From the NCBI RefSeq assembly GCF_044704955.1, contig NC_091985.1:152582001-152646000 (forward strand): 64,000 nt of DNA. The letters are read 5' to 3'. Numbering within the stretch: position 1 is the first letter of the stretch; the number at the start of each line of letters is the position of its first letter. A program made the position numbers and the translations under genes. This DNA comes from Pristiophorus japonicus. Taxonomy: Eukaryota. Shown here piece after piece: positions 5,660-48,503 of this stretch. Under the pieces are notes generated by a model that was not told the origin of the DNA, ran no database searches, and was given only the letters and a program-made list of their open reading frames with translations.

Positions 5660-8507
5660 GTTGGGGAGAGTTTAAACTAATATGGCAGGGGGATGGGAAT
5701 CTATGCAGGGAGACAGAGGTAAGTAAAATGGGGCAGAAGCAAAAGGTAGAAAGGAGATAAGGAAAAGTGGAGGGCAGAGAAATCAAAGGCAAAAATCAAA
5801 AAGGGCCACAGTACAACATAATTCTAAAAGGACAAAGGGTTAAAAAAAACAAGCCTGAAGGCTCTGTGTCTCAATGCGAGGAGCATTCGTAATAAGGTGG
5901 ATGAAGTAACTACACAGATAGCTGTTAACGGATATGATGCAATTAGGATTACGGAGACATGGCTCCAGGGTGACCTAAGCTGGGAACTCAACATCCAGCG
6001 GATAGATAGAAAGGAAAAGAAGGTGGGGTAGCGTTGTTGGTTAAAGAGGAAATTAACGCAATAATAAGGACATTAGCTTGGATGATGTGGAATCTGTATG
6101 GGTAGAGCTGCGGAACACCAAAGGACAGAGAAAAAACTCGTGGGAGTTGTGCACAGACCACCAAACAGTAGTAGTGAGGTTGGGGATGGCATCAAACAGG
6201 AAATTAGGGATGCGTGCAATAAAGGTACAGCAGTTATCATAGGTGACTTCAATCTACATATAGATTGGGCTAACCAAACTGGTAGTAATATGGTGGAGGA
6301 GGATTTCCTGGAGTGTATAAGGGATGGTTTTCTAGACCAATATGTTGAGGAACCAACAAGAGAGCTGGCTATCATAGACTGGATGTTGGGTAATGAGAGA
6401 GGATTAATCAGCAATCTTGTTGTGCAAGGACCCTTGGGGAAGAGTGACCATAATATGGTAGGATTCTTCATTAAAATGGAGAGTTGCACAGTTAATTTAG
6501 AGACTAGGGTCCTGAACTTAAGGAAAGGTAACTTCGATGGTATGAGACGTGAATTAGCTAGGATAGACTGGCGAATGATACTTAAAGGGTTGATGGTGGA
6601 AAGGCAATGGCAGACATTTAAAGATCACATGGATGAACTTCAACAATTGTACATCCCTGTCTGGCGTAAAAATAAAACGGGGAAGGTGGCTCAACCGTGG
6701 ATAACAAGGGAAATTAGCGATCATGTTAAATCCAAGTAAGAGGCATATAAAAGGGCCAGAAAAGGCAGAAAACCTGAGGACTGGGAGAAATTTAGAATTC
6801 AGCAGAGAAGGACAAAGGGTTTCATTAGGAGGGGGAAAATAGAGTATGAGAGGAAGCTTGCAGGGAACATAAAAACTGACTGCAAAAGCTTCACGAGATA
6901 TGTGAAGAGAAAAAAAATTAGTGAAGACAAATGTAAGTCCCTTGCAGTCAGAATCAGGTGAATTTATAATGGGGAACAAAGAAATGGCAGACCAATTGAA
7001 CAAATACTTTGGTTCTGTCTTCACTAAGGAAGACACAAATAACCTTCCGGAAATACTAGAGGACCGAGAAAAAGGAACTGAAGGAAATCCTTATAAGTCA
7101 GGAAATTGTGTTAGGGAAATTGATAGGATAGGTTCATCAGTCTTTGAAAGTTTGCCATACAAGTACAGCAGGTGGTGAAGAAGACAAATGGTATGTCGGC
7201 CTTCATAGCTAGGGGATTTGAGTATAGGAGCAGGAAGGTCTTACTGCAGTTGTACAGGGCCTTGGTGAGGCTTCACCTGGAATATTGCATTCAGTTTTGA
7301 TCTCCTAATCTGAGGAAGGACATTCTTGCTATTGAGAGAGTGCAGCAAAGGTTCACCAGACTGATTCCCGGGATGGCAGGACTGACATATGAGAGGGTCT
7401 CGCAAGAAAGAGGAACTGAAGGAAATTCTGTGGCGGGAGCAGGACTTCCACGCTGGGGGCTACAATTCCCGGCGCCAGAAGGCCCCCAAGATGGGAGCCT
7501 GTGCGGGGAGGTAGAGGGAAGTAGAGGGGAGACGGGGGCGGGGGTTGGAGGGAAGAGTGGTGGAGGTGGAGGGCAGAGAAACCCAGGGCAGGGGACGGGA
7601 GGGGCCACATTGCAGCGGAGGTCTCGGTGCGGGGAGTGTTCAGAGTGGGGTGGATGGGTTGACTGCGCAGCTGGCGGTTGGTGGATGTGGTGTGGTTGGC
7701 GTTGCGCGGGCGTGGCTCCTGGGTGGCCGGGCCTGGGGGCTCGACATCCGGGGGTGTTCGGCATTTGGGAAGGATTCTGACGGGACGGGGCGGGTTGGGT
7801 GTGGGGGGAGTGTTCCCGGTGTTGAGTGGGCTGTTTGGGGCTGGGATGGGGAAAGACTTCTTCACTCGGGGAGTTGTTGGCCTTTGGGGTTCCCTGCAAT
7901 GGAGAGTTGTTGATGCCAGTTCATTGGATGTGTTCTGGAGGGAGTTGGATGTGGTCCTTGCGGCTGGGGGGGGGATGCTGGGGTAGGTGATCAGCCATGA
8001 TCTTGTTGAATGGTGGTGCAGGCTCGAAGGGCCAAATGGCCTACTCCTGCACCTATTTTCTATGTTTCTATGAGAGACTGGATCAACTGGGCCTTTATAC
8101 ATTGAAGTTTAGAAGGATGAGGGGGGATCTCATAGAAACATAAGATTCTGACTGGACGGGACAGGTTAGATGTGGGTAGAATGTTCCCGATGTTGGGGAA
8201 GTCCAGCACCAGGGGACACAGTCTGAGGATAAGGGGTAGACCATTTAGGACTGAGATGAGGAGAAACTTCTTCACTCAGAATTGTTAACCTGTGGAATTC
8301 CCTGCCGCAGAGTGTTGTCGATGCCAGTTCATTGGATATATGCACGATGGAGTTAGATATAGCCCTTACGGCTAAGGGGATCAAGGGGTATGGAGAGAAA
8401 GCAGGAAAGGGGTACTGAGGGAATGATCAGCCATGATCTTATTGAATGGTGGTGCAGGCTCGAAGGGCCGAATGACCTACTCCTGCACCTACTTTCTATG
8501 TTTCTAT
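5660..8507 (+). mobile_element. CR1 with large internal deletions (EN region and RT 3' end); hosts the A>G-rich insert
   Basis: ORF 6098..6739 has APE motifs (GDFN, SDH); ORF 6921..7178; tail ends ...tatgtttctatg near 8507. Confidence 0.85.
7396..8068 (+). mobile_element. Internally deleted CR1-derived retrocopy with A>G hypermutation
   Basis: Flanked by TATGAGAG (7388-7395 and 8069-8076). Segments align by eye to CR1 ORF1/ORF2 junction, EN start and RT 3' end, with many A positions read as G. Normal CR1 tail. Confidence 0.85.
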
Positions 8508-9992
8508 GAAGGCCTGATCCCAGTCTGCATCCCAGAGTACTTAAGGAAATGGCCCTAGAAATAGTGGATGCATTGGTGGTCATTTTCCAACATTCTATAG
8601 ACTCTGGATCTGTTCCTATGGATTGGAGGGTAGCTAATGTAACCCCACTTTATAACAAAGGAGGGAGAGAAAACAGGGAATTATAGACCGGTTAGCCTGA
8701 CATCGGTTGTGGGGAAAATGTTGGAATCAATTATTAAAGATGTAATAGCAGCGCATTTAGAAAACAGTGACAGGATTGGTCCAAGTCAGCATGGATTTAT
8801 GAAAGGGAAATCATGCTTGACAAATTTTCTAGAATTTTTTGAGAATGTAACTAGTAGAGTGGATGTGGTATATTTGGACTTTCAAAAGGCTTTTGACAAG
8901 GTCCCACACAAGAGATTAGTGTGCAAAATTAAAGCACATGGTATTGGGGGTAATTATTGACGTGGAGAGAGAACTGGTTGGCAGACAGGAAGCAAAGAAT
9001 AGGAATAAATGGGTCCTTTTCAGAATGGCAGGCAGTGACTAGTGGGGTACCACAAGGTTCAGTGCTGGGATCCCAGCTATTTACAATATATATTAATGAT
9101 ATAGACGAAGAAATTGAATGCAATATCTCCAAGTTTGCAGATGACACTAAGCTGGGTGGCAGTGTGAGCTGTGAGGAGGATGCTAAGAGGCTAGAAGGTG
9201 ATTTGGACAGGTTAGGTGAGTGGGCAAATGCATGGCAGATACAGTATAATGTAGATAAATATGAGGTTATCCACTTTGGTGGCAAAAACAGGAGGACAGA
9301 TTATCTGAATGGTGACAAATTAGGAAAAGGGGAAGTGCAACGAGGCCTGGGCGTCATGGTACATCAGTCATTGAAAGTTGCAGCAGGTACAGCAGGCGGT
9401 GAAGGCAGCAAATGGCATGTTGGCCTTCATAGCAAGAGGATTTAGGTATCAGAGCAGGGAGGTCTTACTGCAGTTGTACAGGGCCTTGGTGAGGCCACAT
9501 CTTAAATGTTGTGTACAGTTTTGGTCTCCTAATCTGAGGAAGGACATTCTTGCTATTGGAAGAGTGTAGCGAAGGTTCACCAGACTGATTCCCGGGATGG
9601 CAGGACTGACATATGAAGAAAGACTGGACCAACTAGGCTTATATTCACTGGAATTTAGAAGAATGAGGGGATCTCATGGAAACATAAAATTCTGACTGGA
9701 TAGGACAGGTCAGATGCAGGAAGAATGTTCCCGATGTTGGGGAAGTCCAGAACCAGGGGTCACAGTCTAAGGATAAGGGGTAAGCCATTTAGGACCGAGA
9801 TGAGGAGAAACTTCTTCACTCAGAATTGTGAACCTGTGGAATTCTCCACCACAGAAGGTTGTTGAGGCCAGTTTGTTAGATATATTCAAAAGGGAGTTAG
9901 ATGATGCCCTTACAGCTAATGGGATCAAGGGGTATGGAGAGAAAGCAGGAATGGGGTACTGAAGTTGCATGATCAGCCATGATCATATTGAA
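8508..9992 (+). mobile_element. 5'-truncated CR1 (RT, frameshifted); its tail is split and resumes at about 15533-15605
   Basis: ORFs 8709..8960 and 8957..9445 (GVPQGSVLG, FADD). gatcatattgaa at 9992 continues as gaatggtggtgcagg at about 15534. Confidence 0.88.
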
Positions 9993-45502: not shown

Positions 45503-47564
45503 TTTACAGCATAGAAACAAGCCATTCTGCCCAACTAGTCCTTGATGGCGTTTATGCTCCTCTCGAGCCTCCTCCCACCTTTCCTCATCTAACTATCAGC
45601 ATAACCCTCTATGCCCTTCTCCCTCATTATGCTTATCCAGCTTCCCCTTAAATGCATCTATACTATTCGCCTCAACTACTCCCTGGGGTAGCGAGTTCCA
45701 CATTCTCACGACTCTCCAAAGGGATCCCTATTCGGGCATAAAATGCTTGAAATATACACTATGGAATGGAACAAATCATAAAACTTTGCACAATAACACT
45801 TTACAAGGAACTGAACATTTTCAGAGTGAGGATCATGAAAGTGCCCTATTGCTATTCTAAAGCGTCCATTAGAATAGTCAATTAGATTTGTGTTCAAATA
45901 TTAACTGTGAATTCATACATATCTGGAAATGTTGGTTAAGAGCAAAAGCTGACAAATTTTATAACTATAGGGGGGAAAAAGTTTAAGCCATAGGAGCATG
46001 GCAAATGCATCTTTTATGGTTACAATGAACCATGTAATGCTAACTTCTCAACCTAGGTCACGTTCCTGTTCTAACATTAGACCAGCAGCTCTTTGTATTA
46101 AAACAAATACATTGGAACTGGCTGGGGACAGCCACTTTCCAATCACGTGAAGTAAATTTTACAACAAAAAAAAGTGACTCTTAAAAGACAACTGGAACTT
46201 AGGTGGGAGGCAGTGGTTGGACAAGTGCTGTCACAAGCAAACACCTCCAATATAGGAATCACACAATGATTTCAACATCTCAAGAACCAGAACTGCAAAC
46301 CAGGTTACAAGTACTGCTGCGTACAAACACTGCGTCAAAACAAGTTTCTGGTAGCAATCTTGCCTCAGAATCAGAAGGTTTCAAATGTGATCAACTACCA
46401 AATATATTTGAGCAGTGTAAAAAGGACCCCAAACTATTGAAGACAGACTTTCTAGAAAGTAATCAGCAGCATTCAATTGAAACAAGGGCCTCCTAGTCAG
46501 AAGGACGGTGCGAAGATTGTAGCCATCAAGCTGGTAATACTAACATTAAATTTCAATAAATCTGATTGTTAGGAAAAGCACTATATATGGATGGCAAACA
46601 AATGAGCATTCATAGTGGTACACATTCATCTAGAAGCAACTTTTAATTCACTCAAGAATGAGGTAAAGTGAACTACCATCCAATCATTAAATAAATCACT
46701 TGGTGGAAGGAATAATGTTGCAAATGGGATAAGCACCCTCCAGAGGATTGGATATTAACGAGTGTATAGATTAGAAAAATACGTCATCCTGCTGAAAGCC
46801 ACCTGGGTGAAGAACCATCAAGCTAGAACCATGAAAGGTTGCGGCCTATAGCAGCACAAGCTATTGCTCATGGTGAAGTATTAAGCGGATAAGAAACTCT
46901 TGAGGCAAAAGATGCATTTCAAGTTCTGCTAATAACCTCGATGTATAATACAGGCTGTACAAACTTTAAATGAGATGAGTCTGTGCAATGCTCTTGGGGG
47001 AACTTTAGAACATGCAATTCAATTGCTACAACACTAATTAAGCGTCTTTCTTCTTAACTAGTACCCTGCTGAAGAGTCTAAATTTAAAATGTAAAATATA
47101 AAATTAGATATTCACAATGATCTACTTGGATTCAAGTCCTGCGGATTAATTTTGATAATCAAATCCATTATTAAATGATTGATCTCAATATATTAACCCA
47201 TTAAAATATTACAACTTAATTCTGGCAGTGGTTTTTTTTTTTTACACAGCAATAAATTAGTCACACAATGAAACTCAACTCATTTCCCCCTCCTGCTGCC
47301 CAATTCAGCATGAATGGCCCTGTATGTACACTGTTCTACACCATGGCTCAACAAAACACACCAGTTTATTTTATTATATACTACCAAACCACCCATGGCA
47401 GTGCTCATGGGGAATTGGCAAATATACTATTTTATACCATGTAGCCAACAAGATATAAAGTAAGAATGGCTTCTCTGATAGCAATATTGGGGGCTTCGGT
47501 GCTTTAGGGCGGATTGGGGTCTTATGACATCAAGTGGTTGGGGTTCAGGTGGGAGGAGGCAACG

Positions 47565-48503
47565 TGGGGGGTGGGGGGGGGGGAAGGGGGAAGGGTGAGG
47601 GAAAGAGAGAGAGGGGGGGGGTGAGGGAAAGAGAGAGAGGGGGGGGGTGAGGGAAAGAGAGAGAGGGGGGGGTGAGGGAAAGAGAGAGAGGGGGGGGGTG
47701 AGGGAAAGAGAGAGAGGGGGGGGGGTGAGGGAAAGAGAGAGAGGGGGGGGTGAGGGAAAGAGAGAGAGGGGGGGGTGAGGGAAAGAGAGAGAGGGGGGGG
47801 TGAGGGAAAGAGAGAGAGGGGGGGTGAGGGAAAGAGAGAGAGGGGGGGGGTGAGGGAAAGAGAGAGAGGGGGGGGGGGTGAGGGAAAGAGAGAGAGGGGG
47901 GGGGTGAGGGAAAGAGAGAGAGGGGGGGGTGAGGGAAAGAGAGAGAGGGGGGGTGAGGGAAAGAGAGAGAGAGGTGAGGGAAAGAGAGGGGGGTGAGGGA
48001 AAGAGAGGGGGGTGAGGGAAAGAGAGGGGGGTGAGGGAAAGAGAGGGGGGTGAGGGAAAGAGAGGGGGGTGAGGGAAAGAGAGGGGGGTGAGGGAAAGAG
48101 AGGGGGGTGAGGGAAAGAGAGGGGGGTGAGGGAAAGAGAGGGGGGTGAGGGAAAGAGAGGGGGGTGAGGGAAAGAGAGGGGGGTGAGGGAAAGAGAGGGG
48201 GGTGAGGGAAAGAGAGGGGGGTGAGGGAAAGAGAGGGGGGTGAGGGAAAGAGGGGGGGGTGAGGGAAAGAGGGGGGGGTGAGGGAAAGAGGGGGGGTGAG
48301 GGAAAGAGGGGGGGAGAAGAAGAAGGGGGGGGAGAAGAAGAGGGGGGGGGGAGAAGAAGAGGGGGGGGAGGAGAAGAGGGGGGGGGAGGAGAAGAGGGGG
48401 GGGGGAGGAGAAGAGGGGGGGGGGAGGAGAAGAGGGGGGGGGGGGGGGAAAGAGAAAGAAGAGAGAAAAAAGAAAAAGGAGAGAGAGAGAGAGAGAGAGA
48501 GAG
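47565..48503 (+). repeat. Polypurine minisatellite (GTGAGGGAAAGAGAG..GGGGG)n grading into GGAGAAGAG and (GA)n
   Basis: Directly visible; source of the low-complexity ORFs at 47427-48796. Confidence 0.95.

Follow-up and report, generated by a model that had tools for sequence, protein, structure and literature searches.

The G-rich block at positions 7424–8072 of the window (the whole 64,000-nucleotide stretch of Pristiophorus japonicus DNA analysed here) is a 5′-truncated member of a non-autonomous retroposon family of about 2,000 copies, the CR1-derived body of which carries a dense and almost purely one-directional set of A>G changes. Comparison of the family with its unedited relatives makes it very probable that the family descends from a master copy that arose in the germline by reverse transcription of a single CR1 RNA hyper-edited by ADAR. 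The preliminary description of the locus had viewed it as a direct retrocopy of an inosine-rich transcript, which it is not: the founder of the family was edited once, and the window copy, being only two A>G changes apart from the family majority sequence, inherited its G's rather than acquiring them in place.

The block is embedded in an unedited CR1-type LINE (all coordinates given for the window refer to the forward strand). The 3′ region of the host ORF2 occupies 7121–7393 to the left of the insertion, as found by BLAST to paralogues, with an approximate left bound, and the host CR1 resumes at 8072 and runs, likewise unedited, to its own 3′ tail at 8509. A scrap of unedited CR1 ORF2 at 7392–7423, which aligns to loci L246, L143, and L153, was captured at the 5′ junction and lies outside the family, as other family copies lack it and their match begins at 7424. 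Because this scrap retains bases that were lost from the nearby host copy (about 7060), it derives from another CR1 template, and it was likely acquired by a template switch. The family sequence proper opens with the truncated end of the unedited 5′ segment (7424–7488), a piece of an older dispersed repeat that matches L139 and L066 at 74–77% (A>G versus G>A, 6 versus 3 and 2 versus 5, respectively). Alignment to the parent subfamilies delineates two A>G hyper-mutated CR1 pieces, the start of the ORF2 endonuclease region (7489–7775) and the end of ORF2 with the 3′ UTR (7776–7988), of which the window copy has lost 47 nt and about 43 and 29 nt, respectively. They are joined at a deletion junction with GAT microhomology (7769–7782) that is common to the family and at which about 2.35 kb of ORF2 is gone. 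The element ends in a spared CR1 3′ tail (7989–8072) that consists of a stem-loop and TTTCTATG repeats and has 1 of 17 A's read as G. Bounds of 7396..8068 had been proposed for the insert; the edited block is indeed present there, but its edited part is limited to 7489–7988.

The octanucleotide TATGAGAG is present at 7388–7395 and again at 8069–8076, and it had been interpreted as an 8-bp target-site duplication bounding the insert. This interpretation is unproven: the empty site is 3 nt longer in all three host-subfamily copies, so the flanks would meet at 7393 and 8072 without a duplication, and the TATG of the right octanucleotide doubles as the tail repeat of the element itself. In the retrieved sequence, the long form of the empty-site motif has 101 matches versus 7 for the short form, about 4 of which we read as the window junction itself, and the best-supported join in sequencing contigs is also the long form (25 contigs in run X1 versus 8 with the short form). 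A target-site duplication at the window copy, which requires an earlier 3-nt deletion in the host, is possible. Short duplications or tail microhomology were seen by eye at several other family copies (L100, L181, L234, and L232).

Aligned with its closest unedited CR1 relatives over 584 columns, the window copy displays 108 A>G changes and 32 of other kinds; the other classes listed for it are G>A (8), T>C (0), C>T (11), and transversions (21). The excess of A>G over G>A (p = 2e-23) comes from an alignment in which the four transition types were given equal scores. The changes are confined to the insert, as had been proposed, with the left host flank containing 1–3 A>G per 242 columns (compared to unedited L143, L147, and L153) and the right host flank 3–5 per about 430 columns (compared to three unedited relatives). 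The earlier remark that surviving A's often follow a G also holds: 23 of 55 A's were changed after a G versus 84 of 111 otherwise (p = 3e-5).

The insert, presented initially as a unique fossil, has many counterparts. A search of the genome returned 2,651 candidates, and all 40 of those scored have the same G-rich body. A 25-nt motif that spans the deletion junction matches exactly at 875 places in the genome (reversed control, 0) and is present in 12 of 24 independently chosen copies, which corresponds to a family of ~1,750 members. A second motif, placed closer to the 3′ end and written in its edited state, matches the genome 1,983 times when no more than 2 mismatches are allowed (992/991 by strand; reversed control, 0). 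As this motif is present in 26 of 30 copies of the family and in none of 59 unedited loci, the count corresponds to ~2,300 members. The copies have a median distance of 3.8% from the majority sequence, which was built from 54 copies after the exclusion of 6 segmental duplicates, and in the alignment they carry identical G's at identical sites (14 of 30 rows inspected). They are dispersed on both strands, have staggered 5′ ends, and retain the LINE 3′ tail, the traits of a non-autonomous retroposon mobilized by target-primed reverse transcription (TPRT). Many identical copies had been named as a sign of an ordinary G-rich subfamily; such copies exist, but the family is not of that kind, since it consists of A-state CR1 sequence that was changed almost purely from A to G.

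The possibility that the G's are an assembly or sequencing artefact due to poly-G errors derives some appeal from the length of G runs, which differs among copies, but it is refuted at the family level, and we give it practically no credence. Some 2,000 loci, located on both strands, agree in the sites that read G, and family contigs with the edited body and the family variants are present in three of four sequencing runs, namely X1 and X6 (organism A) and X5 (organism B), where X1 may be the assembly's own sample. Contigs of runs X8, X14, X19, X20, and X23 reach the tail end only.

Compared to its closest parents over 703 columns, the family majority has 146 A>G changes and 19 of other types, including 2 G>A, 0 T>C, and 6 C>T. 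In the body, 145 of 210 A's (about 69%) became G, whereas the 84-nt tail has 1 change in 17. The fraction changed depends on the 5′ neighbor in the order T (28/28), A (55/70), C (31/44), and G (31/68; p = 1e-6), and a 3′ G has no such effect (52/73 compared to the rest, p = 0.64). With a slightly more distant, five-copy parent, the numbers are 139 A>G versus 22 other changes, and T 30/31, A 51/64, C 28/40, and G 29/64. As the 5′ piece was compared with progressively better-matched parents, its differences other than A>G dropped from 27 to 26, 12, and 9 while A>G remained steady at 83–90, the best 5′ parent resting on 2 of 18 retrieved stretches. A sister subfamily predicted from the residual differences of the family was found with 1,308 exact matches.

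The spectrum, its strand, and the order of 5′ neighbors support well the earlier attribution of the G-rich block to ADAR. ADAR1 and ADAR2 are described as having this same order of preference, U>A>C>G, in the available text of a study of these enzymes (PMC11019741), and the portion consulted of a comparative survey (PMC5625713) describes hyper-editing with depletion of an upstream G across animals, including the elephant shark, and a 3′ G preference that differs among animals. The edits reduced the number of A's from 202 to 68 and increased G's from 204 to 335, CpG dinucleotides from 13 to 37, and G4 motifs from 0 to 4, and 542 of 594 (92%) 26-nt windows differ from the parent CR1 at at least 4 positions.

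The element is a composite of a tandem array, a fragment of an older repeat that is unedited, an internally deleted and edited CR1, and an intact tail. The 5′ head is an array of a 37–38-bp unit that ranges from none to over 8.4 kb, and the family thus spreads this minisatellite. Arrays longer than 8.4 kb were observed at three loci (L238, L239, and L241; L231 and L236 were also noted) among 11 extended copies that were selected for long arrays and of which three run off the retrieved stretch; such lengths would mean that very long RNAs were retrotransposed or that the array expanded once inserted. The array is followed by about 160 bp of the older dispersed repeat, which keeps four TA dinucleotides versus none in the edited body, and then by the ORF2 start (~335 bp) joined to the 3′ end of CR1 (~370 bp), the gap lying between reference positions 669 and 3019. 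With this part of ORF2 deleted and the rest hyper-mutated, the element does not encode an ORF2 of its own. The tail folds with −29.1 kcal/mol (z = −2.98), a value equalled by 2 of 200 shuffled sequences. Rfam yielded no matches to tRNA, 5S, or 7SL at the gathering score in L240, L001, and L166, a test that ends short of the true 5′ end, as all long copies begin inside the array.

A related full-length CR1 (L198) contains Lipase_GDSL_2 in ORF1 (E = 4e-10) and RVT_1 in ORF2 (E = 7e-28), together with a weak, below cut-off match to Exo_endo_phos (E = 8e-5). An esterase ORF1 combined with an AP endonuclease and reverse transcriptase ORF2 is the marker set of the CR1 clade, and by the domain content of this relative the parent would be a CR1-clade LINE. 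We also considered whether the edited body is prone to deletion. The count of 16 deletions in 17,669 bp compared to 2 in 10,078 bp (p = 0.018) is weak, another parent set having 9 in 18,234 bp, and we make no such claim.

The editing was one event that is fixed in the family and does not continue. Outside CpG, edited G's have reverted at 147 of 5630 positions (2.6%) compared to 187 of 9727 (1.9%) for parental G's, and copies chosen for an A at the junction (L161–L165) still hold 94–99% of the G's. Ongoing editing was rejected as an explanation, since the private A>G excess over T>C in the family (1.8-fold) matches that of unedited CR1 (2.2- and 1.6-fold in two parent sets, a third having more T>C than A>G) and the array units display no consistent A>G excess. 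Among 84 copies, there are no intermediates between the A state and the G state, and subfamily structure is limited to a single linked pair out of 13 polymorphic sites. In 986 kb of retrieved sequence, 449 of 4,276 CR1 windows are skewed towards A>G, and all 449 belong to the family; the same sequence contains no independent hyper-edited CR1 copies and no windows skewed towards G>A, T>C, or C>T.

The earlier suggestion to search the genome for other edited copies and for the source locus bore fruit with regard to edited copies, of which there are ~2,000, and no source was found. Three motif searches for an unedited precursor of the family returned a single locus, L166 (G000:C18:40836893-40838576), which is unedited, has A at 130 of 138 edited sites, and has the same deletion junction. 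L166 shares none of the 21 family-private sites, however, and is therefore not the source but belongs to a sister subfamily; its identical junction may be due to a recurrent microhomology deletion or to templating from a family neighbor. A purine-degenerate motif placed over the private deletion of L166 matched exactly only L166 itself, revealing no edited daughter. An inverted full-length CR1, able to pair with both pieces, lies 270 bp downstream of L166, and inverted CR1 neighbors are present at 9 of 59 loci. The source duplex of the edited RNA was not found, nor was a master locus found when 11 long copies were extended by ~9 kb: seven begin inside the array in unrelated DNA, three leave the stretch, and one ran on. 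A_deamin exons, among which ADAR, ADAD, and ADAT are not told apart, are present at six places in the genome.

The surroundings of L166 provided further observations. Across G000:C18:40836893-40842900 (L166 and the L197–L198 region), L166 is followed by a short inverted tail and then by the inverted full-length CR1. A family copy in the opposite orientation is located 7.6 kb downstream of L166, a proximity with a chance of about 0.8% (computed post hoc). The family copy in L198 near G000:C18:40847000-40847900 interrupts a sequence that resembles a hAT transposase and that may be a remnant of one.

We propose the following model for the origin of the family, which builds on what the sequences show: a family of composite structure that descends from A-state CR1, changes that are strand-specific and ranked by 5′ neighbor, a spared tail, and edits that are fixed. 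A CR1 RNA with the internal ORF2 deletion would have paired with an antisense CR1 RNA, and ADAR would have converted about 69% of the A's in its body to inosine. The CR1 reverse transcriptase, recognizing the intact tail, would then have copied the edited RNA and read I as G. LINEs of this type require their 3′ end, according to the section consulted of PMC3747384. The edited copy would have ended up within the older repeat and beside the 37–38-bp array, and the upstream segment, being unedited, must either have been added once editing was over or have fallen outside the paired region. Transcription through the array would finally have produced a chimeric RNA, whose amplification in trans by CR1 proteins would have spread body and array together.

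Several observations speak against the founding by an ADAR-edited RNA, namely the conversion of 69%, the lack of a source duplex or master in the searches above, and the lack of a 3′-G preference. Long duplexes in vitro reach 40–50% conversion at completion (as given in the available part of PMC11019741), and repeated pairing or two rounds of editing must therefore be assumed. For human L1, cell assays found binding of the RNA but no editing of it, as far as the parts consulted of PMC5224506 and PMC8677026 report.

An event at the DNA level, in which adenines on the sense strand of an RNA:DNA hybrid were deaminated in the founder by ADAR or another deaminase, would affect the same strand, would follow the same neighbor order if ADAR was the enzyme, and could exceed 50% conversion. 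ADAR acts on RNA:DNA hybrids. We nevertheless consider this route improbable, as about 145 deoxyinosines within one molecule would have to evade repair and the hybrid formed by the first strand in TPRT would yield T>C on the sense strand, where none is observed. A single burst of misincorporation by the reverse transcriptase at unbalanced nucleotide pools would account for the strand specificity and for one founder without a duplex partner, and unedited CR1 copies do display a mild excess of A>G over T>C. That excess amounts to about 1% per A compared to 69% in the family, and misincorporation leaves the T>A>C>G ranking (p = 1e-6), the spared tail, and the spared upstream segment unexplained, so that its chance of being correct appears very small.

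The stepwise emergence of an ordinary G-rich subfamily by drift, selection, or GC-biased conversion would fit the roughly 2,000 copies that share their G's and the presence of a few polymorphic A/G sites. Such a process has hardly any probability given 146 A>G versus 0 T>C and 19 others, as a GC bias would affect both strands; given the absence of intermediates in 84 copies and the single linked pair among 13 polymorphic sites; and given that junction-A copies still hold nearly all of the G's. The polarity could also be reversed, with G ancestral and the CR1s edited from G to A by APOBEC-type enzymes, and ample documentation of G>A editing in retroelements is given in the part of PMC4866542 that we consulted. 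The comparison of subfamilies refutes this reading, which we regard as next to impossible: the A state is found in at least 4 CR1 subfamilies, where it encodes endonuclease and reverse transcriptase frames, whereas the G state is found only in the deleted composite, and neither the 4,276 windows, none of which was flagged G>A, nor the 2 G>A changes in 703 columns carry its signature.

Primate SVA is a composite non-autonomous retroposon with a tandem array of variable length that is moved by a LINE. The family described here differs in that it has a CR1 tail instead of poly(A), a 5′ array, and an edited body, and no sequence relation to SVA is expected. SINE/LINE pairs with a common 3′ tail, including shark HE1/HER1, are tabulated in the consulted part of PMC3747384, and resemble the family as non-autonomous elements with a LINE tail that are moved in trans. 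Unlike SINEs, the family has no tRNA, 5S, or 7SL head that we could find but an array and a repeat fragment, and its body is hyper-mutated CR1.

The closest parallels to the editing itself come from retroviruses. ADAR-type A>G clusters in proviral DNA have been described in the 3′ LTR of BLV, with HTLV-2 and STLV-3 cited in the same text (PMC8025556, in part), and, as proposed for the family, A-to-I edits in a retroelement RNA were fixed as G by reverse transcription. In the text available, these clusters are somatic, span about 70 bp with at least 7 changes, and concern 3 proviruses, whereas the family has 145 changes over about 620 nt of a germline non-LTR element in about 2,000 copies. APOBEC G>A fossils in germline ERVs, polarized by subfamily majorities, are likewise traces of hypermutation by a host deaminase in genomic retroelements, but in the excerpt consulted (PMC4866542) they are G>A changes on LTR-element cDNA in single damaged copies, whereas here A>G changes on a LINE RNA founded a family. 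That screen retained G>A and filtered A>G, and in the published screens for edited retroelements, as far as the text consulted goes, G>A was selected and the A>G class would be filtered out. For human L1, restriction by ADAR1 and ADAR2 is editing-independent with L1 editing unseen in the parts consulted of PMC5224506 and PMC8677026. In both cases ADAR meets a LINE RNA, but the CR1 RNA was likely heavily edited and its spread was not stopped. A LINE-derived family founded by a hyper-edited RNA was not found in the literature searched; Repbase and Dfam, which were outside the scope of the search, may catalogue the family without the editing reading.

A-to-I editing is regarded as non-heritable, and the family provides genomic evidence that an edited LINE RNA was likely reverse-transcribed in the vertebrate germline. 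If this is true, an RNA edit became heritable and then multiplied: the edited LINE product was no dead end and founded about 2,000 insertions. The map of 146 changed versus 81 kept adenosines would record an ancient in vivo preference of ADAR, and the sharp edge of the edits at the tail marks a putative minimal cis element of about 84 nt for mobilization in trans by CR1. A putative advantage, less likely than not, is that the edits let the family escape silencing by CR1-directed small RNAs or duplexes while it kept the tail that the CR1 reverse transcriptase needs and seeded the minisatellite across the genome.

Additional features of the loci were noted. Segmental duplication multiplied L011, L012, L015, L017, L018, and L020 (C23 and C3501) as well as L008 and L010, the 1.5-kb flanks of which are 99–100% identical. 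The independent copies L103 and L116 have the same other repeat directly at their 3′ flank, which suggests a shared target preference. In the window, positions 5660–9600 are occupied by CR1 pieces of several subfamilies, nested and deleted, that are arranged head to tail round the insert, and a long purine-rich simple repeat at 47550–48460 produces spurious matches in A/G-collapsed searches. The segment 13770–14150 is a member of a very young subfamily, the copies of which are 98–99% identical.
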